Shown: one piece after another, positions 1 through 11,406 of the stretch | How positions within the stretch are numbered: the stretch's first letter is position 1 | Layout: each line of letters opens with the position of its first letter | Virus record (IMG/VR): IMGVR_UViG_2548877011_000002 | Span: 1-11,406 of that record | Length of the DNA: 11,406 nt | Direction: 5' to 3' (one strand) | Source: a virus | Lineage: Duplodnaviria; Heunggongvirae; Uroviricota; Caudoviricetes | Translations under genes and position numbers: made by a program | Notes under the pieces: generated by a model | Databases searched by the model: none | What the model saw: only the letters and a program-made list of their open reading frames with translations | Told to the model about the DNA's origin: nothing

Positions 1-9
1 ATTTGTCAT
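1..9 (-). CDS. First three codons of the gene downstream of cII on the minus strand, probably a replication (O-like) gene; runs off the left edge
   Basis: Minus-strand ATG (reverse complement of 7-9) preceded by AGGAG (reverse complement of 15-19); position after cII as in the lambdoid layout. Too short to identify. Confidence 0.25.
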
Positions 10-41
10 AATGACTCCTGTGGATTGATCCAGTAATTCCC

Positions 42-338
42 TCAGAATTGCATATCAATTTGCTTAGAGTCCCCGGCGGCCACCGGGGATTTTTTCTTTG
101 TGATTTCATCAAGCGCATACTTAAAAGCTCTGCTAATCGGACTGATGTCTGATGCCATGCCAAAAGCACACAAGACCGAAGCTATAAACCTCCAGTCTGT
201 TCTGCTTATCTTCGATTCATGACAGCCAATCATCTTTGCCAGACCGCGCTGGGTAAGCGTTGACAGGTTGATGAGTAAATCAGTTTCAGCGCGATCAATT
301 TCTCGCTGTGATAGTTTGCTGTAACTTGTTTGTTCCAT
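42..338 (-). CDS. cII: CII-like transcriptional activator (lysogeny establishment)
   Basis: 98-aa ORF. C-terminus ..KKKSPVAAGDSKQIDMQF resembles lambda CII ..KKRPAATERSEQIQMEF as recalled; central HTH-like segment (LAKMIGCHESKISR); lies after cro on the same strand. Confidence 0.7.
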   Translation of the reverse strand: MEQTSYSKLSQREIDRAETDLLINLSTLTQRGLAKMIGCHESKISRTDWRFIASVLCAFGMASDISPISRAFKYALDEITKKKSPVAAGDSKQIDMQF

Positions 339-349
339 TTCTTAAGATT
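316..349 (+). promoter_or_regulatory. Candidate pRE-type promoter with CII half-sites (TTGC-N6-TTGT) and TAAGAT -10, antisense to the cII 5' end
   Basis: TTGCtgtaacTTGT at 316-329 inside the first codons of cII, followed about 14 nt later by TAAGAT (344-349); geometry and the TAAGAT-TTCC stretch resemble lambda pRE as recalled. Confidence 0.35.
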
Positions 350-377
350 TCCAATAGTGAATAGCTAGTTGAAAGGT

Positions 378-393
378 ATGCGTGGAAACGCAT
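378..393 (-). repeat. Perfect 6-bp inverted repeat (hairpin) in the cro-cII intergenic region; possible tR1/nutR-associated structure
   Basis: ATGCGT-ggaa-ACGCAT read directly; no T-run follows, so it is not a classical intrinsic terminator. Confidence 0.3.
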
Positions 394-423
394 ATGGCCT
401 TAGTTGGTCAGATATATTGGGAC

Positions 424-438
424 TCGCTTTGTCAGCGA
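424..438 (-). promoter_or_regulatory. nutR boxB-like hairpin (GACAA loop)
   Basis: Minus-strand reading TCGCT-GACAA-AGCGA, the same loop and near-identical stem as the plus-strand hairpin at 3334-3348; lies just downstream of cro. A possible boxA-like CGCTATTTT is the reverse complement of 462-470. Confidence 0.5.
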
Positions 439-476
439 CGTAGGACGAATGTCCATTGTGAAAATAGCGGTGTTAC

Positions 477-710
477 TTATGCAGCCGATGCTCTACGCGA
501 TACGAACACTAGGTTTTCCTTTTTCACAGGTTTATAACCCGTGAAATTACGAGTAGCTTCTTCGATTGCATTCGCTTTATCAGGGGAAGCTCTTCGAAAT
601 CCATATGCAATCTGGTCAAGATAGCCAACTGAAGTTTTCGCTAATGCGGCGAGTCGCTTCCATTCCTCACTAGAAGCCTCTTTTCGCCAGCGTAGTAGTT
701 CATTACTCAT
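477..710 (-). CDS. cro: Cro-like HTH regulator (YdaS/Cro-type)
   Basis: 77-aa ORF divergent from cI across an operator-rich intergenic region; HTH-like core LAKTSVGYLDQIAYGFRRASPDKANAIEEATR resembles YdaS/Cro-type proteins. Confidence 0.6.
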   Translation of the reverse strand: MSNELLRWRKEASSEEWKRLAALAKTSVGYLDQIAYGFRRASPDKANAIEEATRNFTGYKPVKKENLVFVSRRASAA

Positions 711-823
711 TAGTGCCTCCGTTTATCACACAGAACAACTTTACCATTTTGATAAATCATCCGCAATGTAAATTTATCATATTGCGTATTTATCCATTTG
801 CTAAATAGAGGGAAAATTGTGAG
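711..823. promoter_or_regulatory. oR region with divergent pR/pRM promoters and repeated operator motif
   Basis: Divergent cI/cro intergenic region containing TTTATCA at 722-728 and 773-779, TTTATCC at 789-795, and the inverted form GATAAA at 751-756; the 10-mer AATTTATCAT at 771-780 recurs in oL. Confidence 0.6.
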
Positions 824-1528
824 ATGGAAAACAAAGATATTCGCAAATCGAATCTGGCGTTTTTGCTAGATGAGCATAAAAAAATCGCGGGTAACACTAA
901 TGCAAGCTTTGCCGATAAGCTTGGGGTTAGCCCTTCTCAACTCACGCAAGTCTCCGGTGAAAAAAGCACTCGAAACATAGGGGATAAACTAGCAAGAAAA
1001 TTTGAAGCCGCGCTTGGGTTACCTAATGGGTGGCTTGATTTGGTACATGATGTAACACCAATTGCATCATGCTCAGATTCTTTAACTTTTGTCGGTCAGG
1101 TAAGAAAAGGGTTAGTGCGCGTGGTTGGTGAGGCAATTCTTGGTGTTGATGGTGCCATCGAGATGACCGAAGAGCGCGATGGGTGGCTCAAAATTTATAG
1201 CGATGATCCAGATGCCTTTGGTCTTCGTGTGAAAGGAGACAGCATGTGGCCCAGAATAAAATCAGGAGAATATGTACTCATTGAGCCTAACACCAAAGTA
1301 TTCCCGGGTGATGAGGTGTTTGTCAGAACTGTTGAAGGACACAACATGATCAAAGTTCTTGGCTATGACAGAGACGGAGAATACCAATTTACAAGCATCA
1401 ACCAGGACCACAGGCCAATAACGTTGCCTTATCATCAAGTAGCAAAGGTGGAGTATGTGGCTGGTATTCTGAAGCAATCTCGCCATCTGGATGACATCGA
1501 GGCAAGGGAGTGGCTGAAAAGTTCGTGA
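824..1528 (+). CDS. cI: CI-type prophage repressor (N-terminal HTH, C-terminal S24/LexA-like autopeptidase domain)
   Basis: 234-aa ORF; N-terminal HTH-like region (FADKLGVSPSQLTQV); C-terminal domain with a GDSMWP serine motif and a downstream lysine (MIKVLG) typical of LexA/CI self-cleaving repressors; divergent from cro. Confidence 0.9.
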   Translation: MENKDIRKSNLAFLLDEHKKIAGNTNASFADKLGVSPSQLTQVSGEKSTRNIGDKLARKFEAALGLPNGWLDLVHDVTPIASCSDSLTFVGQVRKGLVRVVGEAILGVDGAIEMTEERDGWLKIYSDDPDAFGLRVKGDSMWPRIKSGEYVLIEPNTKVFPGDEVFVRTVEGHNMIKVLGYDRDGEYQFTSINQDHRPITLPYHQVAKVEYVAGILKQSRHLDDIEAREWLKSS

Positions 1529-1610
1529 CTTCATCGTCACATAGCTGGTAACCAGTGGCCTGAAGAGACGTTTGGGTGATGTACATAGCATTTCTGGATA
1601 AAAATACAGA

Positions 1611-1652
1611 TTCCCTTTATGGGAAATGAATCTATAATTCCCAAAAAGGGAA
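1611..1652 (+). promoter_or_regulatory. Candidate promoter/operator for the toxin-antitoxin-chaperone cassette
   Basis: Two palindromes TTCCC-N5-GGGAA (1611-1625 and 1638-1652) flank a perfect TATAAT at 1633-1638; the toxin ATG is at 1665. Confidence 0.45.
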
Positions 1653-1664
1653 CAAAATCGGATT

Positions 1665-1952
1665 ATGAAGGTCTTAAACGTAGAGAAGCTTCACAGTTTT
1701 AGCCGGAAGCACAATCAGGCCAAGGGGGCTTTAGACTCTTGGTATGATGAAGTGATAAGAGAAAACTGGAAAACGACTCAAGACATACGGAATAGATTTA
1801 ATTCTGCCGACTTCCTTCCTAACAACAGGGTAATTTTTAATATAAAAGGCAATAACTATCGGCTCGTTGTCCAAGTTGTTTACCAGGCAGGAATGGTCAT
1901 AGTTGAAAGAGTTGGAACTCATGCAGAGTACGACAAGTGGAGGCTTAAATGA
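1665..1952 (+). CDS. higB: HigB-type toxin (RelE/ParE-fold mRNA interferase family)
   Basis: 95-aa ORF; C-terminal half FNIKGNNYRLVVQVVYQAGMVIVERVGTHAEYDKW parallels E. coli HigB (YgjN) ..FNVGGNELRVVAMVFF..CYIREVMTHKEYD as recalled; 4-nt ATGA overlap with the next ORF. Confidence 0.8.
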   Translation: MKVLNVEKLHSFSRKHNQAKGALDSWYDEVIRENWKTTQDIRNRFNSADFLPNNRVIFNIKGNNYRLVVQVVYQAGMVIVERVGTHAEYDKWRLK

Positions 1953-2605
1953 ATCGAACTAGCTGGCGCATCATTAAAAATAGTGAAGAGCATGCTGCAG
2001 CTATGGAAAGGCTCATTGAACTTGCGTCTAGTGATTTACAACCTGGAACTGAAGATTTTGATGAGTTTGAACTACTAGGCTTGCTTATCGAGCACTATGA
2101 GTCACGCGAGTTCCCTATGGACAAGCCAGATCCCATAGAAGCAATCAAGTTCCGTATGGATCAACAAGGCCTCTCTTATGCCGATATGAAACAATACATT
2201 GGCTCAGCATCTAAAGTATCTGAGGTCTTAAATCGTAAGCGTCCATTAAGTCTTTCAATGATCCGTAGACTACATGACGGACTTGGAATTCCTGCAGATA
2301 TCTTAATTCAAGATATGAGCGCAATTGAATGGAGCCTAGTTGACGCAGAGGAAGAAGAAACAGCCATGACTAGCGTCATTGCTCGGTGTGAGTCAGCCGT
2401 CACATCACCTTCTGCTTATTTCGCTGAAAAGGCTACAGAATCTTACTTTTCAAAAATGTTGTTCAGCGCAGTAAGGGGTAATGGCAAATGCAAAGAAAAA
2501 CGGAATGTTTTTTCTTTGATAAGTAACTTGTCATCAAGTTTCACAGCGGCTAGCAACCTGAATGACGAAATGACTTCTGACGGAAATTACTTATTATTAC
2601 CATGA
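1949..2605 (+). CDS. higA: HigA-type HTH antitoxin with a ~90-aa C-terminal extension (candidate chaperone-addiction region)
   Basis: 218-aa ORF; residues ~60-125 (PIEAIKFRMDQQGLSYADMKQYIGSASKVSEVLNRKRPLSLSMIRRLHDGLGIPADILI) parallel the E. coli HigA (YgjM) HTH region as recalled; it then continues ~90 aa beyond where HigA normally ends, Ser/Ala-rich; ATGA overlaps with both neighbours. Confidence 0.75.
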   Translation: MNRTSWRIIKNSEEHAAAMERLIELASSDLQPGTEDFDEFELLGLLIEHYESREFPMDKPDPIEAIKFRMDQQGLSYADMKQYIGSASKVSEVLNRKRPLSLSMIRRLHDGLGIPADILIQDMSAIEWSLVDAEEEETAMTSVIARCESAVTSPSAYFAEKATESYFSKMLFSAVRGNGKCKEKRNVFSLISNLSSSFTAASNLNDEMTSDGNYLLLP

Positions 2606-3006
2606 AAATTGAACTCATTAGCAAAAAAGTTGAACGCTTGGTTATGACACGGCTAGAAGGCGATTCAACAGCAAAAAAAGCCATAAAAACAACCGTTAAT
2701 CTAAATAATGAACTTTACACTAATGTGAAGGATTCAAAGCTATTTAGAGTGAGATATTTTGCCTCCGTAACTATTGAAGGCAGGCTTGAGATGGACATCA
2801 CATACGACTTTGACTTCCGGTCAGAAGATGATTTTTCTCATGAAATGGCAAAATCATATGAGGTAAGGTCCATTGCTCCCAATATGGCATATCCCTATAT
2901 AAAAACATATGCCGAGCAAATTATCCTCATGTCAAACCTTGGTAGGTTCACTCTGCCTTATTTTGATTTCTTGGCCAATCCCATGGAAACGAACAGTAAT
3001 AAGTGA
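2602..3006 (+). CDS. SecB-like chaperone (third component of the cassette)
   Basis: 134-aa ORF translationally coupled to the antitoxin; C-terminal PNMAYPYIKTYAEQIILMSNLGRF..LPYFDF resembles the SecB segment [28 protein letters not shown] as recalled. The similarity is remote and by eye only. Confidence 0.6.
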   Translation: MKIELISKKVERLVMTRLEGDSTAKKAIKTTVNLNNELYTNVKDSKLFRVRYFASVTIEGRLEMDITYDFDFRSEDDFSHEMAKSYEVRSIAPNMAYPYIKTYAEQIILMSNLGRFTLPYFDFLANPMETNSNK

Positions 3007-3014
3007 AATTCCCC

Positions 3015-3040
3015 ACCCGGCCTCAGCGCCGGGTTTTCTT
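3015..3040 (+). terminator. Intrinsic terminator closing the cI/cassette transcription unit
   Basis: ACCCGGC-ctcagc-GCCGGGT stem-loop followed by TTTCTTT, 9 nt after the stop codon of the chaperone ORF. Confidence 0.7.
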
Positions 3041-3144
3041 TGCCTCACGATCCCCACACCTAAAAACACATAACCAATTGTATTTGTTGAAAAATAAATA
3101 GATACAACTTGCTAAACAACGCAATCCAGATCTCCCTCAAATCT

Positions 3145-3265
3145 CTTTATTTATCCTGTCGAATTCCTACAACAAAATAAAACACCATAAGAATCAATAC
3201 GATATTTGAAAACCAAGAGAATTTATCATTTTGCTATTGCCATTAATTTATCATTCCGATAAAGT
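3145..3265 (+). promoter_or_regulatory. oL/pL region: repeated operator motif and candidate pL promoter
   Basis: AATTTATCATT at 3220-3230 and 3245-3255, TTTATCC at 3150-3156, GATAAA at 3258-3263; candidate -35 TTGCCA (3237-3242) and -10 TAAAGT (3260-3265) with 17-nt spacing, reading toward N. Confidence 0.5.
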
Positions 3266-3333
3266 TCACCCATCAGCAGGACGCACTACTCACCAGGGCG
3301 GTGAATATACAACGATTCGAATATGAATCTACG

Positions 3334-3348
3334 GCGCTGACAAAGCGC
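3334..3348 (+). promoter_or_regulatory. nutL boxB hairpin (P22-type, GACAA loop)
   Basis: GCGCT-GACAA-AGCGC matches the P22-type boxB as recalled; lies between pL and N. Confidence 0.6.
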
Positions 3349-3477
3349 AATAACCAAAGTGAACTTTGGGGTGAATGCAGAAGCTAACCTTCTCGGCGGA
3401 GGCGCTTTGCAATGATTACGCGACCGGAGTTAGTCGCCCGGCTGTATTCACCGCCAAAGTTCATCAGGAGGTTCCAT

Positions 3478-3861
3478 ATGACACGCAGAACTCAGTTCAA
3501 AGGCAATTCTCGTTCTCGTCGTCGTGAGCGTTTAAAGGCAAAGGCATTAGCTAACGGCGTACTGGCCCGCGAAGAAGCAATAAGTTCAGAAGTATTACAC
3601 CGCCCAACTCTAAGTAGAGCGCAGATTCAGGCTAAAGGTACTCACGAAACGCCTGATCGCATAGAAGACGCTAAGCCAATTAAGTTCATGGCACAGGACG
3701 TGATCTGGCAGCAGGAAGAATACAGACGCAATCTGGAGCGAGCGGCCATTGTGTACGCGAATGAGTTTGGACATAAGCAACCAGAAACTGGTGTATGTCT
3801 TCCAAATGTAGCTCTTTACGCGGCAGGCTACCGGAAATCCAAACAACTGACAGCAAGATGA
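3478..3861 (+). CDS. N: N-type transcription antiterminator (P22 gp24-like)
   Basis: Arginine-rich N-terminus (MTRRTQFKGNSRSRRRERLKAK); C-terminus ..VALYAAGYRKSKQLTAR close to P22 N ..VALYAAGHRKSKQITAR as recalled; AGGAGG at 3466-3471 before the ATG at 3478. The track start at 3412 is in frame but lacks an RBS. Confidence 0.8.
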   Translation: MTRRTQFKGNSRSRRRERLKAKALANGVLAREEAISSEVLHRPTLSRAQIQAKGTHETPDRIEDAKPIKFMAQDVIWQQEEYRRNLERAAIVYANEFGHKQPETGVCLPNVALYAAGYRKSKQLTAR

Positions 3862-3919
3862 CTTGTGTTGGTCGCCAGAAAATGAAATTAGGCAGCAAAC
3901 CACTTATTTGAGGTGATAT

Positions 3920-4390
3920 ATGACAAAATCATGGAGCGTACCTTTTCCTGAATCAGAAACTGAACATGATGGAATGCCTGTTTTCTGGAGATTCCAGGCG
4001 ACAGTTGAAGAAGATGGGATAAAAATATTCGCACTTCAATATATAGCTTTTCATCAGACAGAGCATTATGCATGGTTGGTTCCTGCGCATTGGATTGTTA
4101 ATTTTAAACCAGCACCAAATCAGTGGTTACAGGAATGGAAACAAAGGAGAAATAGATATGCAATTAAGAAAGTAGCAAAAAATGCAGAAAGATCTTTTGC
4201 ATTCCCAACGAAGAAACTTGCCATTGAAAGTTTATTGCGCCGGAAGAAATACCATTTAATGAGAATCAAACAAGATTTGGCTGTTGTATCAACTCTTGTT
4301 GATGGTATGAAGAATATTGATACATCAACACCAGATATTGAATATAACTTTGGACACAACCAAGAAACAGAAAATTGGGTATTTTATTAG
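3920..4390 (+). CDS. Hypothetical protein (156 aa) in an AT-rich island between N and ea10
   Basis: Complete ORF with GAGGTGA before the ATG; no family recognised; visibly AT-richer than its neighbours; followed by an inverted repeat and an intrinsic terminator. Confidence 0.5.
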   Translation: MTKSWSVPFPESETEHDGMPVFWRFQATVEEDGIKIFALQYIAFHQTEHYAWLVPAHWIVNFKPAPNQWLQEWKQRRNRYAIKKVAKNAERSFAFPTKKLAIESLLRRKKYHLMRIKQDLAVVSTLVDGMKNIDTSTPDIEYNFGHNQETENWVFY

Positions 4391-4404
4391 TACGAATAAG
4401 CACT

Positions 4405-4432
4405 GTGTATTCATTCCAACGAGTGAATACAC
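4405..4432. repeat. 9-bp perfect inverted repeat GTGTATTCA-N10-TGAATACAC
   Basis: Read directly from the sequence; sits between the 156-aa ORF and the terminator; could be a protein-binding site or RNA hairpin. Confidence 0.5.
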
Positions 4433-4494
4433 GGAGCAATGTCGCTCGTAACTAAACAGGAGCCGACTTGTTCTGATTATTGGAAATCTTCTTT

Positions 4495-4520
4495 GCCCTC
4501 CAATGTGAGGGCGATTTTTT
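4495..4520 (+). terminator. Intrinsic terminator
   Basis: GCCCTC-caatgt-GAGGGC followed by GATTTTTT. Confidence 0.7.
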
Positions 4521-4540
4521 ATCTGTGAGGATATGAACAG

Positions 4541-4909
4541 ATGTCAAACATCAAAAAATACATCATTGATTACGACTGGAAAGCATCAATAGAAATTGAA
4601 ATCGACCATGACGTAATGACAGAGGAAAAACTTCACCAGATTAATAATTTCTGGTCAGACTCTGAATACCGACTCAATAAACACGGCTCTGTATTAAATG
4701 CTGTATTAATCATGCTGGCGCAACATGCTCTGCTTATAGCAATTTCAAGCGACTTAAATGCATATGGTGTTGTGTGTGAGTTCGACTGGAATGATGGAAA
4801 TGGTCAGGAAGGATGGCCTCCAATGGATGGTAGCGAAGGAATAAGAATTACCGATATCGATACATCAGGAATATTTGATTCAGATGATATGACTATCAAG
4901 GCCGCCTGA
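4541..4909 (+). CDS. ea10: Ea10-like protein (lambda ea10 position, upstream of cIII)
   Basis: 122-aa ORF, the same length and position as lambda ea10 and with a sequence I believe matches it; GAGGA RBS upstream. Identity is from memory only. Confidence 0.55.
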   Translation: MSNIKKYIIDYDWKASIEIEIDHDVMTEEKLHQINNFWSDSEYRLNKHGSVLNAVLIMLAQHALLIAISSDLNAYGVVCEFDWNDGNGQEGWPPMDGSEGIRITDIDTSGIFDSDDMTIKAA

Positions 4910-4981
4910 GTGCGGCTTTACCGCATACCAATAACGCTTCACTCGAGGCGTTTTTCGTTATGTATAAATAAGGAGCACACC

Positions 4982-5146
4982 ATGCAATATGCCATTGCAG
5001 GGTGGCCTGTTGCTGGCTGCCCTTCCGAATCTTTACTTGAACGAATCACCCGTAAATTACGTGACGGATGGAAACGCCTTATCGACATACTTAATCAGCC
5101 AGGAGTCCCAAAGAATGGATCAAACACTTATGGCTATCCAGACTAA
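4982..5146 (+). CDS. cIII: CIII (FtsH inhibitor that protects CII)
   Basis: 54-aa product [54 protein letters not shown] matches lambda CIII as recalled; AAGGAG at 4970-4975. The track's GTG start at 4910 is an upstream in-frame extension. Confidence 0.85.
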   Translation: MQYAIAGWPVAGCPSESLLERITRKLRDGWKRLIDILNQPGVPKNGSNTYGYPD

Positions 5147-5258
5147 ATTCACTATCGCCACTTTTATTGGCGATGAAAAGATGTTTCGTGAAGCCGTCGA
5201 CGCTTATAAAAAATGGATATTAATGCTGAAACTGAGATCAAGCAAAAGCATTCACTAA
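5115..5258 (+). CDS. kil: Kil (host cell-division inhibitor peptide)
   Basis: 47-aa product [47 protein letters not shown]; overlaps the cIII 3' end by 32 nt as in lambda; AGGAG at 5101-5105. Confidence 0.75.
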
Positions 5259-5333
5259 CCCCATTTCCTGTTTTCCTAATCAGCCTGGCATTTCGCGGGC
5301 GATATTTTCACAGCCATTTTCAGGAGTTCAGCC

Positions 5334-5630
5334 ATGAACGCTTATTACATTCAGGATCGTCTTGAGGCTCAGAGCTGGGCGCGTCACTACCAGCAGATCG
5401 CCCGTGAAGAGAAAGAGGCAGAACTGGCAGACGACATGGAAAAAGGCCTGCCCCAGCACCTGTTTGAATCGCTATGCATCGATCATTTGCAACGCCACGG
5501 GGCCAGCAAAAAAGCCATTACCCGTGCGTTTGATGACGATGTTGAGTTTCAGGAGCGCATGGCAGAACACATCCGGTACATGGTTGAAACCATTGCTCAC
5601 CACCAGGTTGATATTGATTCAGAGGTATAA
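5334..5630 (+). CDS. gam: Gam (RecBCD inhibitor), short 98-aa form
   Basis: Sequence [51 protein letters not shown].. essentially identical to lambda GamS as recalled. Confidence 0.9.
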
Positions 5631-5635
5631 AACGG

Positions 5636-6421
5636 ATGAGTACAGCACTCGCAACGCTGGCTGGGAAGCTGGCTGAACGTGTCGGCATGGATTCTGTCGA
5701 CCCACAGGAACTGATCACCACTCTTCGCCAGACGGCATTTAAAGGCGATGCCAGCGATGCGCAGTTCATCGCATTGTTGATCGTCGCCAACCAGTACGGC
5801 CTTAATCCGTGGACGAAAGAAATTTACGCCTTCCCTGATAAGCAGAACGGCATCGTTCCGGTGGTGGGCGTTGATGGCTGGTCCCGCATCATCAATGAAA
5901 ACCAGCAGTTTGATGGCATGGACTTTGAGCAGGACAATGAATCCTGTACATGCCGGATTTACCGCAAGGACCGTAATCATCCGATCTGCGTTACCGAATG
6001 GATGGATGAATGCCGCCGCGAACCATTCAAAACCCGCGAAGGCAGAGAAATCACCGGACCGTGGCAGTCGCATCCCAAACGGATGTTACGGCATAAAGCC
6101 ATGATTCAGTGTGCCCGTCTGGCCTTCGGATTTGCTGGTATCTATGACAAGGATGAAGCCGAGCGCATTGTCGAAAATACCGCATACACTGCAGAACGTC
6201 AGCCGGAACGCGACATCACTCCGGTTAACAATGAAACCATGCAGGAGATTAACACTCTGCTGATCGCCCTGGATAAAACATGGGATGACGACTTATTGCC
6301 GCTCTGTTCCCAGATATTTCGCCGCGACATTCGCGCATCGTCAGAACTGACACAGGCCGAAGCAGTGAAAGCTCTTGGATTCCTGAAACAGAAAGCCACT
6401 GAGCAGAAGGTGGCAGCATGA
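5636..6421 (+). CDS. bet: Bet (Red-beta single-strand annealing protein)
   Basis: 261-aa product near-identical to lambda Bet as recalled ([37 protein letters not shown]..). Confidence 0.95.
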
Positions 6422-7098
6422 CACCGGACATTATCCTGCAGCGTACCGGGATCGATGTGAGAGCTGTCGAACAGGGGGATGATGCATGGCACAAATTACG
6501 GCTCGGCGTCATCACCGCTTCAGAAGTTCACAACGTGATAGCAAAGCCCCGCTCAGGAAAGAAGTGGCCTGACATGAAAATGTCCTACTTCCACACCCTG
6601 CTTGCTGAGGTTTGCACCGGTGTGGCTCCGGAAGTTAACGCTAAGGCTCTGGCCTGGGGAAAACAGTACGAGAACGACGCCAGAACCCTCTTTGAGTTCA
6701 CTTCCGGCGTTAATGTTACTGAATCCCCGATCATCTATCGCGACGAAAGTATGCGCACCGCCTGCTCTCCCGATGGTTTATGCAGTGACGGTAACGGCCT
6801 TGAGCTGAAATGCCCGTTTACCTCCCGGGATTTCATGAAGTTCCGGCTCGGTGGTTTCGAGGCCATAAAATCGGCTTACATGGCCCAGGTGCAGTACAGC
6901 ATGTGGGTGACGCGAAAAGATGCCTGGTACTTTGCCAACTATGACCCGCGTATGAAGCGTGAAGGCCTGCATTATGTCGTGATTGAGCGGAATGAAAAGT
7001 ACATGGCGAATTTTGACGAGATGGTGCCGGAGTTCATCGAAAAAATGGACGAGGCACTGGCTGAAATTGGTTTTGTATTTGGGGAGCAATGGCGATGA
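6418..7098 (+). CDS. exo: Exo (Red-alpha 5'-3' exonuclease)
   Basis: 226-aa product near-identical to lambda Exo as recalled ([62 protein letters not shown]..); 4-nt overlap with bet. Confidence 0.95.
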
Positions 7099-7277
7099 AG
7101 CATCCTCACGATAATATCCGCGTAGGCACGATCACTTTCGTCTACTCCGTTACAAAGCGAGGCTGGGTATTTCCCGGCCTTTCTGTTATCCAAAATCCAC
7201 TGAAAGCCCAGCGGCTGGCTGAGGAGATAAATAATAAACGAGGGGCTGTATGCACAAAGCATCTCCTGTTGAGTTAA
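7089..7277 (+). CDS. Small hypothetical protein (lambda orf60a position)
   Basis: 62-aa ORF overlapping the exo stop; same position and size as lambda orf60a. Confidence 0.5.
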
Positions 7278-7441
7278 GAACGAGCATTGAGATGGCACAT
7301 AGCCTTGCTCAAATTGGAGTCAGGTTTGTGCCAATACCAGTAGAAACAGACGAAGAATTTCATACGTTAGCCGCATCCCTTTCACAAAAGCTGGAAATGA
7401 TGGTGGCGAAAGCAGAAGCAGATGAGAGAGACCAGGTATGA
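7250..7441 (+). CDS. Small hypothetical protein (lambda orf63 position)
   Basis: 63-aa ORF overlapping the upstream ORF as in lambda. Confidence 0.5.
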   Translation: MHKASPVELRTSIEMAHSLAQIGVRFVPIPVETDEEFHTLAASLSQKLEMMVAKAEADERDQV

Positions 7442-7521
7442 CAACCACTGAATGCATTTTTCTGGCAGCGGGCTTCATATTCTGTGTGCTTATGCTTGCC
7501 GACATGGGACTTGTTCAATGA
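7438..7521 (+). CDS. Candidate 27-aa hydrophobic peptide (single predicted TM helix)
   Basis: Own translation: MTTTECIFLAAGFIFCVLMLADMGLVQ. ATGA overlap with the upstream stop (7438-7441) and overlap of its stop with the next start (7518-7521). Below the ORF-track size cut-off. Confidence 0.3.
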   Translation: MTTTECIFLAAGFIFCVLMLADMGLVQ

Positions 7522-7733
7522 CACCTCAGCAAGAAAACGCCCTTCGCAGTATTGCCCGTCAGGCTAATTCTGAAATCAAAAAAGCCAGACAGCAGTTTCC
7601 GGATAAAAACGTCGATGACATTTGCCGTAGCGTACTGAAGAAGCACCGCGAAACGGTAACGCTGATGGGATTCACACCGACTCATTTAAGTCTGGCGATC
7701 GGCATGTTAAACGGCGTCTTTAAGGAGCGATGA
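7518..7733 (+). CDS. Small hypothetical protein (71 aa from the internal Met; possible orf61-position homologue)
   Basis: Track ORF 7452..7733; the start MTPQQENALRS.. at 7518 is translationally coupled to the upstream peptide and is preferred. Confidence 0.45.
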   Translation: MTPQQENALRSIARQANSEIKKARQQFPDKNVDDICRSVLKKHRETVTLMGFTPTHLSLAIGMLNGVFKER

Positions 7734-7754
7734 ACATGAAAAGCAAAATCATCA

Positions 7755-7777
7755 GGGAGCTACAGGCTCCTTTTTTA
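7755..7777 (+). terminator. Candidate intrinsic terminator
   Basis: GGGAGC-tacag-GCTCC stem-loop followed by TTTTTTATTATT. Confidence 0.45.
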
Positions 7778-7831
7778 TTATTCGCATTCACCCTCAAGCG
7801 TATTAACCAACAATTCAGGGATTAATGAAAG

Positions 7832-8053
7832 ATGGCGGACATCATTGATTCAGCATCAGAAATTGAAGAATTACAGCGCAATACAGCAATAAAAATGCGT
7901 CGTCTGAACTACCAGACTATATCCGCCACTCATTGTTGTGAGTGTGGCGATCCCATAGATGAACGAAGACGTCTGGCCGTTCAGGGTTGTCGGACTTGTG
8001 CAAGTTGCCAGGAAGATCTGGAGCTTATCAGTAAACAGAGAGGTTCGAAGTGA
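7832..8053 (+). CDS. TraR/DksA-family C4 zinc-finger protein
   Basis: 73-aa ORF with CxxC-N17-CxxC spacing (CCECGDPIDERRRLAVQGCRTCASC), typical of phage TraR-like proteins. Confidence 0.65.
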   Translation: MADIIDSASEIEELQRNTAIKMRRLNYQTISATHCCECGDPIDERRRLAVQGCRTCASCQEDLELISKQRGSK

Positions 8054-8688
8054 GCGAAATTAACTCTCAGGCACTGCGTGAAGCGGCAGAGCAGGCAATG
8101 CATGACGACTGGGGATTTGATGCGGACCTTTTCCATGAGCTGGTAACACCATCGATTGTGCTGGCGCTGCTGGATGAACGGGAAAGAAACCAGCAATACA
8201 TCAAACGCCGCGACCAGGAGAACGAGGATATTGCTCTTACGGTAGGGAAGCTGCGTGTTGAGCTGGAAGCAGCAGAGAACAACCTTATTGATAGTGAATG
8301 CCATGTTGCTGAACTGGAAGAAGCGCTACGCGATAAGCAGGCGTTACTTGAAGCCTCAGAAAAGCGCAACGCAAAATTACAAAGCGAGAATGCATACATC
8401 CGCAACCGGTACAAAGAACTGGACCTGTTAATCGGGAAAAACATTCTTGTCATGCAGGCTGCGATTATCGAATGGCAGGCAACTGGCGACGCTAAAAGCG
8501 GACTGGCATGGATTTATAACACACTGTTTGGCCCAGGCGAATTGCCGGACGAATCTGAGAAAGATGCTCAGGCCTACTTTAATCGCAAATATGCACCGAT
8601 TGACGAAAAGCTTATGGAGCTTCACAAGTGGTTTTGGGAACAAAGTGAAGCCGAGCGCGCCGCTGGCATTCGCATCAAAGGAGAGTGA
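8050..8688 (+). CDS. Ead/Ea22-like coiled-coil protein
   Basis: 212-aa ORF with GTG start overlapping the upstream stop; N-terminus MSEINSQALREAAEQA.. and a central heptad-rich region resemble Ead/Ea22-like prophage proteins; low certainty. Confidence 0.45.
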   Translation: MSEINSQALREAAEQAMHDDWGFDADLFHELVTPSIVLALLDERERNQQYIKRRDQENEDIALTVGKLRVELEAAENNLIDSECHVAELEEALRDKQALLEASEKRNAKLQSENAYIRNRYKELDLLIGKNILVMQAAIIEWQATGDAKSGLAWIYNTLFGPGELPDESEKDAQAYFNRKYAPIDEKLMELHKWFWEQSEAERAAGIRIKGE

Positions 8689-8689
8689 G

Positions 8690-9445
8690 ATGATTCACTA
8701 CCACGGTGGGCCTATTACTCCTGATACGTGCGCAATGAGAGCATGGAAAGGGCGACATGCGTTTATCAGTTTTGCGCATTCAGGCCAGATCAATCTCGCG
8801 GCTGAATACTGTCAGTCGTTCGCGCTGGACAACGGTGCATTCACCGCCTGGAAAGCAGCTGGCAAAAACAAAATCGACTGGAGCGATTACTACGAGTTTG
8901 TTGCTCGCTGGAAGAATCACCCAGGATTCGATTTTGCCATTATCCCGGATGTTATTGATGGCGGAGAGGAGGAAAATGATGCGCTTCTGAATGAGTGGCC
9001 TCACGGAAAACTAGCTGGCGTTCCAGTGTGGCACATGAATGAAAGTGACGAGCGATTTATTCATTTGTGCAATGAGTTTCCGCGAGTGGCTATCGGTAGT
9101 TGTGGCGACTATGACGTAAAGCGCCCAACTCTTGCGGTAGCCAGAATGAAAGACCTGATTCGTCACATTGTTGATGGGCATGGTCAGCCGGTTACGAAAC
9201 TACATGGATTGCGCATGTTAAATCCGCTGATATTCACAAAATTACCCTTAGCCAGCGCAGATAGTACGAACGTCGCTCGAAACATCGGTATTGATAAAGC
9301 CTGGTCTGGGGCTTATGCACCTGCAAGTAAAGAGACACGCGCAGCATTAATGGTAGAACGGATTGAGGCACACAATAGCCCTGGTTCTCTTGCGTATTGT
9401 GAACAACGCGACCGCTTTGAAATGCAATTGCAACTAGCACTTTAA
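8690..9445 (+). CDS. TGT-fold protein, candidate DpdA-like DNA transglycosylase (7-deazaguanine DNA modification)
   Basis: 251-aa product from the ATG at 8690 (AAAGGAGAG RBS; the track's 8447 start lies inside the upstream gene). Collinear motif resemblance to tRNA-guanine transglycosylase: FALDNGAF vs LTDSGGFQ, FDFAIIPDVIDG vs DIVMIFDECTPY, FPRVAIGSCGDY vs GFDGYAVGGLAVGE, LASADSTNV vs GIDMFDCV. By eye only. Confidence 0.4.
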   Translation: MIHYHGGPITPDTCAMRAWKGRHAFISFAHSGQINLAAEYCQSFALDNGAFTAWKAAGKNKIDWSDYYEFVARWKNHPGFDFAIIPDVIDGGEEENDALLNEWPHGKLAGVPVWHMNESDERFIHLCNEFPRVAIGSCGDYDVKRPTLAVARMKDLIRHIVDGHGQPVTKLHGLRMLNPLIFTKLPLASADSTNVARNIGIDKAWSGAYAPASKETRAALMVERIEAHNSPGSLAYCEQRDRFEMQLQLAL

Positions 9446-9455
9446 GGACTAACAA

Positions 9456-10286
9456 ATGACCACTATTACCAAAGAACGTATTGAATTGTTCATTAAAAAT
9501 CCGCTTGAAAACGGGCTTACTCGTGGCGAACAAATGGAACTGGCACGAATTGCACTGGCATCACTGGAACGCGAACTGATTCGCCACGAGCATGCCAAAT
9601 GGTCTGACTCCACATTTGGCTGCGTTGGCCCCATTGGTCCACTGAAACACCTCTCAAAAGAGGCTCTGGAAGCCGCAGCCGAACCAGACGATCTCAGCGA
9701 GTGGGCTGATATGCATTTCCTGTTGTGGGATGCACAGCGCCGTGCTGGCATCAGCGATGCTGAAATTACCGCTGCTATGGAAGATAAATTGAAGATCAAC
9801 ATGGAGCGCCAGTGGCCTGAACCAAAAGATGGTGAGCCTCGCTTGCACATTAAAGAACCCGGCAACTCTCCGGTAATTCCGGATGGTTTATCCACGGTAT
9901 GCGCTGAGGCTTATCAGGTTGTAGGAGTTATGGCAGATGCGCTTGGTGTATTCGGTGATGCAGCAGTACAGAAAGTTCTGGATAACCTGTCACAGCAAAA
10001 ACTTGTTCACAGAGATGTGCTGCCGTTCTCGCTTCCGGCAACTCCGGATGGTTGGATAAGCTGTAGTGAGCGAATGCCTGAAATGGGAGAGCGACAATGC
10101 TATGTGTTAGCAGCTGACTTTAAAAACAACTACCCACCAAACATCCCCAACACTCAGGTCGGCGTATATGGCGACTGGTTTAATGATGGCAAGCCCACTT
10201 GGGATGACGGTGATGGCGAAGACCTGTATCTCAAAGAGGTAACCCACTGGATGCAGCTACCAGAACCGCCGCAGGAGGTGAAATGA
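9456..10286 (+). CDS. DUF550 (dATP/dGTP pyrophosphohydrolase-like) plus DUF551 two-domain prophage protein
   Basis: 276-aa ORF; N-terminal region (HEHAKWSDSTFGCVGPIGPLKHLSKEALEAAAEPDDLSEWADMHFLLWDAQRRAGISDAEI) matches the recalled DUF550 pattern; C-terminal DGWISCSERMPE..VLAADF.. matches the DUF551 pattern. Confidence 0.55.
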   Translation: MTTITKERIELFIKNPLENGLTRGEQMELARIALASLERELIRHEHAKWSDSTFGCVGPIGPLKHLSKEALEAAAEPDDLSEWADMHFLLWDAQRRAGISDAEITAAMEDKLKINMERQWPEPKDGEPRLHIKEPGNSPVIPDGLSTVCAEAYQVVGVMADALGVFGDAAVQKVLDNLSQQKLVHRDVLPFSLPATPDGWISCSERMPEMGERQCYVLAADFKNNYPPNIPNTQVGVYGDWFNDGKPTWDDGDGEDLYLKEVTHWMQLPEPPQEVK

Positions 10287-10369
10287 TGAATTGGCCTGAA
10301 GCATTCACCGCAGTTGGAGTTGCAATAGCGGTGGCATTTATTCTGTATTCGCTTTTCCGCTGGGGATAA
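10283..10369 (+). CDS. Candidate 28-aa hydrophobic peptide (single predicted TM helix)
   Basis: Own translation: MMNWPEAFTAVGVAIAVAFILYSLFRWG. Start overlaps the upstream stop (ATGATG at 10283-10288); the next ORF starts 5 nt after its stop. Below the ORF-track cut-off. Confidence 0.3.
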   Translation: MMNWPEAFTAVGVAIAVAFILYSLFRWG

Positions 10370-10373
10370 AGGA

Positions 10374-10616
10374 ATGTTCGCTCTGATTCAACGTGGTCAG
10401 ATATACACGGACAGAGCCGGATACCCTGTGGTGATTACTCGCAGTACTCAGCACTCAGTGTTCTTTCGACGCATGGACGGGCGCTCCGGACGGGTACGCA
10501 TTGGTGAGTTCAACAACCTGTTCGAACATATTGACCAACAGGAGTACCGCAAAATTCTGGCGGGCACTGAGCAGGAAATGCGCCTGAAAAAATTACGCGC
10601 AATGCAACGGAGGTGA
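10374..10616 (+). CDS. Hypothetical small protein (80 aa; possibly DUF4222-like)
   Basis: Complete ORF with AAGGA before the ATG; family assignment uncertain. Confidence 0.45.
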   Translation: MFALIQRGQIYTDRAGYPVVITRSTQHSVFFRRMDGRSGRVRIGEFNNLFEHIDQQEYRKILAGTEQEMRLKKLRAMQRR

Positions 10617-10619
10617 TAC

Positions 10620-10754
10620 ATGCATACGGCTTTTGAGTTCTGGGTTCGCAAGACATTCGGCAATCGCTACGACCTGACCCGTGATGTCGACGGCTTCTAC
10701 TGCCGTGAAGTTGTGAAACGAATGTTTGACGTGTGGTTCCACTGCCGTGGATGA
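10620..10754 (+). CDS. Candidate 44-aa Cys/Trp-rich small protein
   Basis: Own translation: MHTAFEFWVRKTFGNRYDLTRDVDGFYCREVVKRMFDVWFHCRG. ATG 4 nt after the upstream stop, GGAGGTGA RBS within the upstream gene end. Confidence 0.35.
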   Translation: MHTAFEFWVRKTFGNRYDLTRDVDGFYCREVVKRMFDVWFHCRG

Positions 10755-10772
10755 AAGTTTTATGAGGTTGGC

Positions 10773-11027
10773 ATGCAGACAATCATCTATCAGATAACCC
10801 CCAGCAAATGGTGTACGGAGAGAGTCCTTATTGCATCAACAGGGCTAAAGCCCGGCACCATCGAGCGGGCCAGAAGAAAGTCATGGATGCAGGGAAAAGA
10901 ATACCGCCATTACGCTGTAGAAGGTGATCCTGGGCATTACAGTGAATGCCTGTACAACATCGAAGAAATTATGCGATGGATCGAAAACCAGAAACAACCA
11001 GGTGCCAAAAATGCAAGTTCCGGTTAA
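10773..11027 (+). CDS. xis: Excisionase-like protein
   Basis: 84-aa ORF immediately upstream of the integrase start and co-directional with it; basic, small, with a conserved-looking ITPSKWC segment seen in some prophage excisionases. Call is mainly positional. Confidence 0.5.
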   Translation: MQTIIYQITPSKWCTERVLIASTGLKPGTIERARRKSWMQGKEYRHYAVEGDPGHYSECLYNIEEIMRWIENQKQPGAKNASSG

Positions 11028-11060
11028 CCTGTTAATGCTCCTGGACGTCTGGGAGGTTTA

Positions 11061-11406
11061 ATGAGTAACGCATCATACCCGACAGGCGTTGAAAACCATG
11101 GAGGATCACTCCGTATATGGTTTCACTATAATGGCAAACGTGTCAGAGAAAACCTCGGTGTTCCTGACACAGCCAAAAACCGGAAGATCGCTGGTGAACT
11201 TCGCACTTCCGTTTGTTTTGCAATCAGAATGGGGAGTTTCGACTACGCCGCGCAGTTCCCTAATTCCCCTAACCTGAAACACTTTGGTCTGGGAAAAAGA
11301 GAGATAACCGTTAAGGCACTTTCGGAAAAATGGTTGGACCTTAAGAAAATTGAGATTTGTGCGAATGCACTTAACCGTTACCAGTCAGTAATTAAAAACA
11401 TGTTAC
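11061..11406 (+). CDS. int: Tyrosine integrase, N-terminal (arm-binding) part; 3' end beyond the window
   Basis: Own translation from the ATG at 11061 (GGGAGG at 11051-11056): MSNASYPTGVENHGGSLRIWFHYNGKRVRENLGVPDTAKNRKIAGELRTSVCFAIRMGSFDYAAQFPNSPNLKHFG.., resembling N-terminal domains of prophage integrases. Absent from the ORF track because no stop lies in the window. Confidence 0.6.
   Translation, partial: MSNASYPTGVENHGGSLRIWFHYNGKRVRENLGVPDTAKNRKIAGELRTSVCFAIRMGSFDYAAQFPNSPNLKHFGLGKREITVKALSEKWLDLKKIEICANALNRYQSVIKNML

Follow-up and report, generated by a model that had tools for sequence, protein, structure and literature searches.

An allele of the HigBAC anti-phage system, with its SecB-like chaperone HigC, in an Stx-type lambdoid prophage

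We have analysed here an 11,406-nucleotide stretch of Caudoviricetes DNA (IMG/VR virus record IMGVR_UViG_2548877011_000002, positions 1 to 11,406; hereafter the window). Our data indicate, with a probability that we put at about 93%, that the open reading frame at positions 2602 to 3006 is higC, which encodes the SecB-like chaperone of HigBAC, a tripartite toxin-antitoxin-chaperone (TAC) system directed against phages and carried in this case by a Shiga toxin (Stx)-type lambdoid prophage. The window holds an allele of an experimentally characterized HigBAC, that of Escherichia coli NT1F31, and the system is already known, having been published in 2024 (Mets et al. 2024, bioRxiv 10.1101/2024.02.24.581848; hereafter Mets et al.). 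What we have computed is the anatomy of the operon, the SecB fold of HigC, its homology to SecB and to the chaperone CmdC, the conservation of the HigC pocket and of the chaperone-addiction (ChAD) tail of HigA, and the near-identity of the encoded proteins to the published ones. An original prediction, made by eye, had proposed that this reading frame encodes a SecB-like chaperone and that such a protein would be the probable phage-sensing component of its system.

The reading frame is real, running on the plus strand from an ATG at 2602 to a TGA stop at 3004-3006 and specifying a product of 134 residues. It is the last of three genes that lie just 3' of the cI repressor gene in the immunity region of the lambdoid prophage:

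1665 to 1952, plus strand: higB, a RelE-family HigB toxin (ribosome-dependent mRNA interferase) of 95 residues (Pfam HigB_toxin, E 4.5e-30)
1949 to 2605, plus strand: higA, a helix-turn-helix antitoxin of 218 residues (Pfam HTH_3, E 3.6e-4 at residues 67-118)
2602 to 3006, plus strand: higC, a SecB-like TAC chaperone (SecB-TA) of 134 residues

Successive genes overlap by ATGA at both junctions, and higB-higA-higC is a translationally coupled tricistronic operon in which higC occupies the position, third after a type II toxin-antitoxin pair, that marks a TAC chaperone. Residues 1-121 of HigA form its N-terminal neutralizing and DNA-binding part, the recognizable domain stopping near residue 121, and residues 122-218 (nucleotides 2312 to 2602) are a C-terminal ChAD extension that ends in Leu-Pro.

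The assignment of HigC to the SecB fold is secure on three independent lines, namely predicted structure, relatives and profile comparison. The AlphaFold2 model, calculated from a 20-sequence alignment, is confident (predicted local distance difference test score 86.9, predicted template modelling score 0.80) and has the layout expected of a SecB fold, in which four antiparallel strands lead into a helix of 25 residues at 86-110. Among the Foldseek matches of this model in the PDB, the top 19 are without exception SecB or SecB-like chaperones, led by the ChAD-peptide complex of Mycobacterium tuberculosis Rv1957 (E 5e-7, template modelling score 0.73-0.75), and E. coli SecB is matched with an E-value of 1.3e-6. 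When 1.84 billion representatives were searched exhaustively with a profile (E <= 1e-3), 120 HigC relatives of 116-164 residues were obtained; 104 of them were aligned, and 93 of these 104 match Pfam SecB (best E 1.4e-13). In the PDB, a profile of the 104 sequences matches only SecB chains, with Haemophilus influenzae SecB as the best (E 1.5e-6), and hhalign aligns this profile with E. coli SecB over 135 columns at 93.9% probability and an E-value of 1.5e-7. The SecB reference sequence used, of 155 residues, is identical to PDB 5jtl_A. Structure prediction and profile comparison, which the original prediction had named among the means of checking its call, thus both return SecB.

The resemblance first seen by eye concerned the peptide APNMAYPYIKTYAEQIILMSNLGRFTLPYFDF, which corresponds to residues 92-123 of HigC (nucleotides 2875 to 2970, plus strand), and a segment of E. 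coli SecB that begins at residue 102. The register of that match was correct: the hhalign alignment places HigC 92-123 on SecB 102-133 without a gap. This stretch is the most conserved block of the 104-sequence alignment and represents the SecB-family signature (NAPAIAFPYLR..IS.L.L.SG.....LP..NF), in which P98 is invariant and P93, L118, P119 and F123 are at least 90% conserved. In the model it covers the start and body of helix alpha1 and then an LPxxxF crossover segment.

The proteins of the window are nearly identical to those of NT1F31, with which they were compared using the sequence of the chromosomal locus of that strain. HigC agrees at 133 of 134 positions (NT1F31 protein WP_112844288.1; A27 in the window, T27 in NT1F31), HigA at 217 of 218 (R185 in the window, Q185 in NT1F31) and HigB at 94 of 95 (I31 and R31, respectively), and the adjacent CI repressor is likewise identical at 233 of 234 positions (S234 and L234). 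At the nucleotide level there are 2 differences in the 405 positions of higC, 4 in the 657 of higA and 1 in the 288 of higB, while the intergenic DNA 5' of the operon is 390/399 identical, a divergence of about 2%. None of the published primers for cloning and mutagenizing higC has a mismatch to the window. In the window proteins, all eight of the functional residues reported for NT1F31 keep their published numbers. The HigC pocket residues Y39, N41, R49 (which is essential) and D71 are present and, like the aromatic residues near the pocket, do not vary across 20 homologs with identities as low as 51%; variation is seen in the beta1-beta2 loop, in the turns and in the C-terminal tail. The ChAD aromatics W128, F158, F188 and Y214 of HigA are all present as published, and among homologs the ChAD tail is strongly divergent except for invariant W128 and F158 and an aromatic residue (Y/F) at 214. 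The A27T difference in HigC falls within the beta1-beta2 loop, which is hypervariable and modelled at low confidence, and position 31 of HigB is naturally variable among homologs, being I, R, K or S. By analogy, we infer that the window allele (HigC A27, HigA R185, HigB I31) would behave like that of NT1F31. The two loci also share the same operon, promoter region, terminator and slot 3' of cI in a lambdoid prophage. They differ in their carriers: the window allele is found in Stx-type prophages (BP-4795, ST2-8624 and O26 Stx1a phages) with a non-gpV tail, whereas the NT1F31 prophage is lambda-like and has a lambda gpV.

Chaperone dependence, sensing of gpV, the major tail protein, and inhibition of translation are literature results for the NT1F31 allele, which we extend to the window by analogy. 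Mets et al. found that HigBA is toxic without HigC and neutralized with it, that HigA from which the ChAD has been deleted is chaperone-independent, and that HigC R49A does not rescue HigBA toxicity. A ChAD peptide binds HigC with a dissociation constant (KD) of 1.3 uM, and binding is abolished by W128A. HigB causes a specific block of translation, and HigBAC confers protection from lambda-vir and Bas25. The S54P substitution in gpV is carried by escape mutants, and in infected cells HigC and gpV co-purify. An unfolded gpV 48-78 peptide binds HigC directly (KD 250 nM), in competition with the ChAD peptide, whereas folded gpV 1-160 does not bind. Inactivation of HigA and HigBA toxicity are independent of ClpXP, Lon and HslVU. 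The same authors model HigC as a tetramer, and isothermal titration calorimetry gave a stoichiometry of about 0.5 peptide per monomer (bioRxiv 10.1101/2024.02.24.581848). The proposal that this protein is the phage-sensing component is therefore borne out in a HigC that is identical to that of the window at 133 of 134 positions.

Carried over to the window, the published scheme would have a HigC tetramer hold the ~96-residue disordered ChAD tail of HigA, as for the NT1F31 allele, so that HigA would remain stable and the HigB RNase neutralized. On infection by a lambda-like phage, nascent unfolded gpV, which displays a similar aromatic and acidic pattern, would compete for the HigC groove. HigA deprived of its chaperone would then be inactivated, and the freed HigB would stop translation and so restrict phage production. 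The original prediction had gone further and suggested that the surface residues of the chaperone may define which phages are restricted. When HigC was swapped onto the CmdTA pair of the CmdTAC system, its phage spectrum was not simply transferred (Mets et al., bioRxiv 10.1101/2024.02.24.581848), and the chaperone surface is thus a determinant of the restricted phages and not the sole one.

Some of our results, and some features of the published work, weigh against the identification of HigC as the chaperone of an anti-phage HigBAC. Searches of Pfam, NCBIfam and PDB sequences with the single HigC sequence gave no SecB match; the best matches were at chance level (3Beta_HSD, E 0.13; RPABC3, E 0.09). 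HigC has no match at all to Pfam SecB (PF02556), for which the gathering score is 26 bits, and the best score among its closest homologs falls below that value (21.6 bits, E 2.2e-4). BLASTP of HigC against E. coli SecB recovers exactly the 32 residues noticed by eye, with an E-value of 0.02 that is not significant on its own; shuffled sequences scored at least as well as the real match in 155 of 2000 cases when the whole protein was shuffled and in 17 of 5000 when the hand-picked segment was. A shallow profile of 20 enterobacterial homologs (effective number of sequences 1.9) found no match in the PDB and, when aligned to SecB with hhalign, gave a probability of 0.3%, yet already in the correct register. 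With no significant direct match, the family assignment rests on predicted structure and profile transitivity. Each of the three proteins carries one substitution relative to the tested NT1F31 allele. The published HigC complex is an AlphaFold-Multimer model accompanied by calorimetry, hydrogen-deuterium exchange and genetics rather than a solved structure, and the defence assays relied on pBR322 with Ptet driving expression, as opposed to a native single-copy Stx prophage (Mets et al., bioRxiv 10.1101/2024.02.24.581848).

The constitutive multicopy expression behind the defence data also leaves room for an account in which HigC only stabilizes its antitoxin, HigBAC being an addiction, prophage-maintenance or stress toxin-antitoxin module like M. 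tuberculosis HigBA1-Rv1957, with no native phage sensing or with a trigger other than gpV. The earliest descriptions of TAC systems indeed presented them as toxin-antitoxin systems that respond to stress and are controlled by a chaperone (PMC3581621, PMC5105189), and the intact gpV trigger encoded by the lambda-type carriers described below is awkward for a purely anti-lambda abortive role. Against this stand the binding of the gpV peptide, the gpV escape mutant, the enrichment of gpV by immunoprecipitation and mass spectrometry in infection and the toxicity of trigger co-expression, all obtained with the 133/134-identical HigC. The locus moreover sits in the defence slot beside cI that is equivalent to that of rexAB, and the relative CmdC senses a T4 capsid protein. 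We consider a role confined to stabilization to be very unlikely.

Two further accounts dispute the identity of the protein itself, and we give almost no credence to either. A housekeeping-type SecB paralogue, passing phage, prophage or host preproteins to SecA for export, would share its fold and homology with SecB, as HigC does, and the exact HigC sequence is labelled 'Preprotein translocase subunit SecB' in UniRef. Overexpressed E. coli SecB also partially suppresses HigBA toxicity (Mets et al., bioRxiv 10.1101/2024.02.24.581848), which implies that its client recognition or groove overlaps with that of HigC. Identity between HigC and the housekeeping SecB proteins of E. coli and H. influenzae (PDB 1QYN, 1FX3, 5JTL) is, however, only 11-17% despite the shared fold and detectable homology. 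HigC is, as had been noticed at the outset, shorter than E. coli SecB (134 against 155 residues, a difference of 21), its model has one long helix with no second, C-terminal helix and no helix after residue 110, and the alignment stops at about SecB residue 142, leaving the acidic C-terminal tail of SecB without a counterpart. In SecB, the second C-terminal helix and the acidic tail serve the interaction with SecA. The operon context points the same way, higC being translationally coupled to a toxin-antitoxin pair whose antitoxin bears a ChAD tail, in a three-gene linkage that is conserved across genera. HigC serves one antitoxin from a prophage operon, whereas the secB gene of the host itself belongs to a separate operon, yibN-grxC-secB-gpsA. 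On length, absent C-terminal elements and operon context we reject the export role, and HigC is best classed as a SecB-TA (TAC) chaperone. The other account takes HigC for a nucleotide hydrolase domain of the NUDIX type ('SMODS-associated NUDIX', Pfam PF18167, Sa_NUDIX), a family matched by 8 of 20 close homologs, among them those numbered P0022 to P0027 in our set; P0027 reaches 26.9 bits against a gathering score of 25, and its UniRef name follows. In these homologs, however, the PF18167 and SecB matches span the same residues, HigC itself has no PF18167 match, and a cut-off of E <= 0.01 leaves 93 of the 104 broader relatives with a SecB match and not one with a match to PF18167. P0027 is named 'protein-export chaperone SecB' by NCBI, the Nudix box (GX5EX7REUXEEXGU) is not seen in HigC, and no NUDIX structures occur among its fold matches. 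The NUDIX assignment is rejected on this fold and broader-family evidence, and the PF18167 label looks misleading for the HigC clade; a literature search for a link between the PF18167 name and SecB found no paper that uses the term.

As a SecB-like TAC chaperone, HigC can be set beside systems already described. Rv1957, the chaperone of the M. tuberculosis HigB1-HigA1 TAC system (PDB 5MTW), is likewise the third gene product of a HigBA-type module and binds its ChAD through aromatic and hydrophobic pockets, although its sequence identity to HigC is only 14-17%. The ChAD of the window HigA (96 residues) is more than twice as long as that of M. tuberculosis HigA1, and whereas a C-terminal Val-Ala degron directs HigA1 to ClpXP for degradation, the window HigA ends in Leu-Pro. 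Rv1957 is not known to have a phage trigger. CmdC, of the CmdTAC (PD-T4-9) system (Vassallo et al. 2022; PMC11618068), is a homolog at the sequence level, the PADLOC profile PD-T4-9_C matching HigC over its full length (E 3.2e-11). Like HigC, it is the SecB-like sensor of a TAC system borne on prophages or islands and is titrated by a phage structural protein. The two systems differ in toxin (an mRNA ADP-ribosyltransferase in CmdTAC, the HigB RNase in HigBAC), in trigger (the T4 major capsid protein Gp23 for CmdC, gpV for HigC) and in the loss of the antitoxin, which is ClpXP-dependent in CmdTAC, unlike in HigBAC. CmdC fails to neutralize HigBA, whereas HigC can neutralize CmdTA (Mets et al., bioRxiv 10.1101/2024.02.24.581848).

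The toxin and antitoxin have a second set of relatives in the PD-Lambda-2 defence system. HigB matches the PADLOC profile PD-Lambda-2_A with an E-value of 2.5e-42, and PD-Lambda-2_B matches residues 5-127 of HigA only (E 3.8e-50), over profile positions 3-125 of 402. The HigBA core (window positions 1665 to 2330) thus also occurs in PD-Lambda-2, fused there to a much longer and different C-terminal part; PD-Lambda-2 has this long part of its own where the HigBA of the window has a ChAD tail and a SecB-like chaperone.

The window represents the immunity and early-left region of a lambdoid prophage. The operon is bounded by a predicted promoter and a strong intrinsic terminator, and the genes on its 5' side are those of a lambdoid immunity region:

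42 to 338, minus strand: cII-like gene
477 to 710, minus strand: cro-like gene
824 to 1528, plus strand: cI-type S24 repressor (Pfam Peptidase_S24, E 3.8e-16; weak HTH_3 match; PHROG transcriptional repressor)
1611 to 1625 and 1638 to 1652, plus strand: predicted operon promoter, consisting of two operator palindromes TTCCC-N5-GGGAA that flank a perfect -10 TATAAT at 1633-1638
3015 to 3044, plus strand: intrinsic terminator closing the operon (terminator scan: 7-bp stem with 6 G-C pairs, then TTTCTTTG)

The TATAAT lies 27 nucleotides 5' of higB. The palindrome occurs in two exact copies in the window against 0.01 expected, and two copies were seen in none of 200 shuffles. The E. coli, Klebsiella aerogenes and Serratia loci each keep both copies 5' of higB, and Pantoea keeps one in exact form; together with the TATAAT, the palindromes form a conserved island in an intergenic alignment that has otherwise diverged across genera. 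The TATAAT at 1633-1638, the -35 of which is poor, is absent from the output of a sigma-70 scan, and our promoter call is therefore based on the conserved island of palindromes and -10 element. Judged from these sequence features, the palindromes around the TATAAT are probably an operator-promoter autoregulated by HigA or HigBA. In one of the Serratia loci (L002), higB is not called as a gene though both operator palindromes are present.

At the other end of the operon, the primer MT16_terminator_rev of Mets et al. maps to window positions 3026-3045 with 1 mismatch, and the operon was cloned by those authors with this 'native terminator' (bioRxiv 10.1101/2024.02.24.581848). The genes and elements found 3' of the terminator are N, the cIII thermoregulator RNA, gam, bet and exo. 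The Rfam model Lambda_thermo, for the thermoregulator, is matched over its full length at 4969 to 5027 on the plus strand (88.5 bits, E 5e-21), which confirms that a lambda-type pL operon lies 3' of the HigBAC cassette. Two conserved early-left genes of unknown function are present between N and cIII on the plus strand, at 3920 to 4390 (phrog_1636, E 2.7e-112) and 4541 to 4909 (phrog_646, E 3.8e-71); the counterpart of the latter in Stx2a_WGPS9 is annotated 'single stranded DNA-binding protein'. On the 5' side, the counterparts of cI in Stx2a_WGPS9 and BP-4795 are annotated 'repressor protein CI'. The slot directly 3' of cI is the position that lambda uses for rexAB (Mets et al., bioRxiv 10.1101/2024.02.24.581848). 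RexAB resembles HigBAC in this placement and in being a prophage-encoded exclusion of other phages, but the proteins and the mechanism are unrelated.

Prophages that carry HigBAC differ in whether they encode the trigger themselves. In our comparison of the tails of two lambda-type and four Stx-type carriers, the NT1F31 HigBAC prophage encodes a gpV (NZ_CP045190.1, 3141667-3142407; positions 29668 to 30408 of locus L010, minus strand) that is identical to lambda gpV at 239 of 246 positions and throughout residues 24-187, a range that includes W36, S54, D61DED64, W67 and the 48-78 peptide. The carrier in strain 10034940-2 likewise encodes a gpV (NZ_CP159141.1, 3612258-3612998; positions 28259 to 28999 of locus L014, minus strand) with 243 of 246 residues identical and the trigger region intact. 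No gpV homolog was found in the Stx-type carriers examined, namely the first 50 kb of Stx1_JNE122398, BP-4795, the partial WGPS9 sequence and the E2865 prophage, and in Stx phages with the window allele the major tail subunit has no relation to lambda gpV. Since their major tail subunit is unrelated to gpV, the Stx-type carriers would not be able to trigger their own HigBAC, while the intact trigger in the lambda-type carriers would imply either self-limited lytic growth or an undescribed evasion of self-triggering. We offer only tentatively, as a proposal that is rather doubtful, that HigBAC is matched to the tail type of its carrier in this way, with Stx-type carriers unable to self-trigger and lambda-type carriers throttling their own lytic growth or evading self-triggering. 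Possible routes of evasion are shut-off of the autoregulated promoter, such that there is no nascent HigA to chaperone, a low single-copy dosage, and a phage-encoded inhibitor. Induction, autoimmunity and superinfection are not mentioned by Mets et al. (bioRxiv 10.1101/2024.02.24.581848).

Of 5426 complete E. coli genomes, 88 hold the full operon, as do at least 30 phage records, most of them Stx-converting, including BP-4795, ST2-8624 (O157:H7 86-24), Stx2a_WGPS9 and many O26 Stx1a phages; the exact 134-residue HigC sequence occurs on at least 1000 public contigs. Linkage of the three genes is conserved in K. aerogenes, Serratia and Pantoea, where HigC identity is 85-50%, and the cassette is also found 3' of cI in K. 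aerogenes and Pantoea. In Serratia marcescens (loci L002 and L003), higBAC, with 63% HigC identity, instead lies at about 3055 to 4405, with a DUF927 primase-like gene on one side, P22 gp7/injection-protein genes on the other and no cI alongside, a placement which implies that the cassette moves between prophage loci.

The identification of HigC adds nothing new biologically, its fold, partners, mechanism and trigger having been published in 2024 for a protein within one residue of that in the window. The HigBAC paper also has a journal version, in Cell Host & Microbe. The practical value of our analysis is the annotation of genes now called hypothetical, together with the question of self-triggering. 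HigC is named 'hypothetical protein' by NCBI/RefSeq, in the phage records of GenBank the three genes are all annotated as hypothetical or as 'transcriptional regulator', and PHROGs lists the higB, higA and higC families as of unknown function. What these labels cover is a validated anti-lambdoid defence system that sits beside cI in clinically important Stx phages, including those of O157:H7 and O26 lineages, and that could influence which other lambdoid phages superinfect Stx lysogens.

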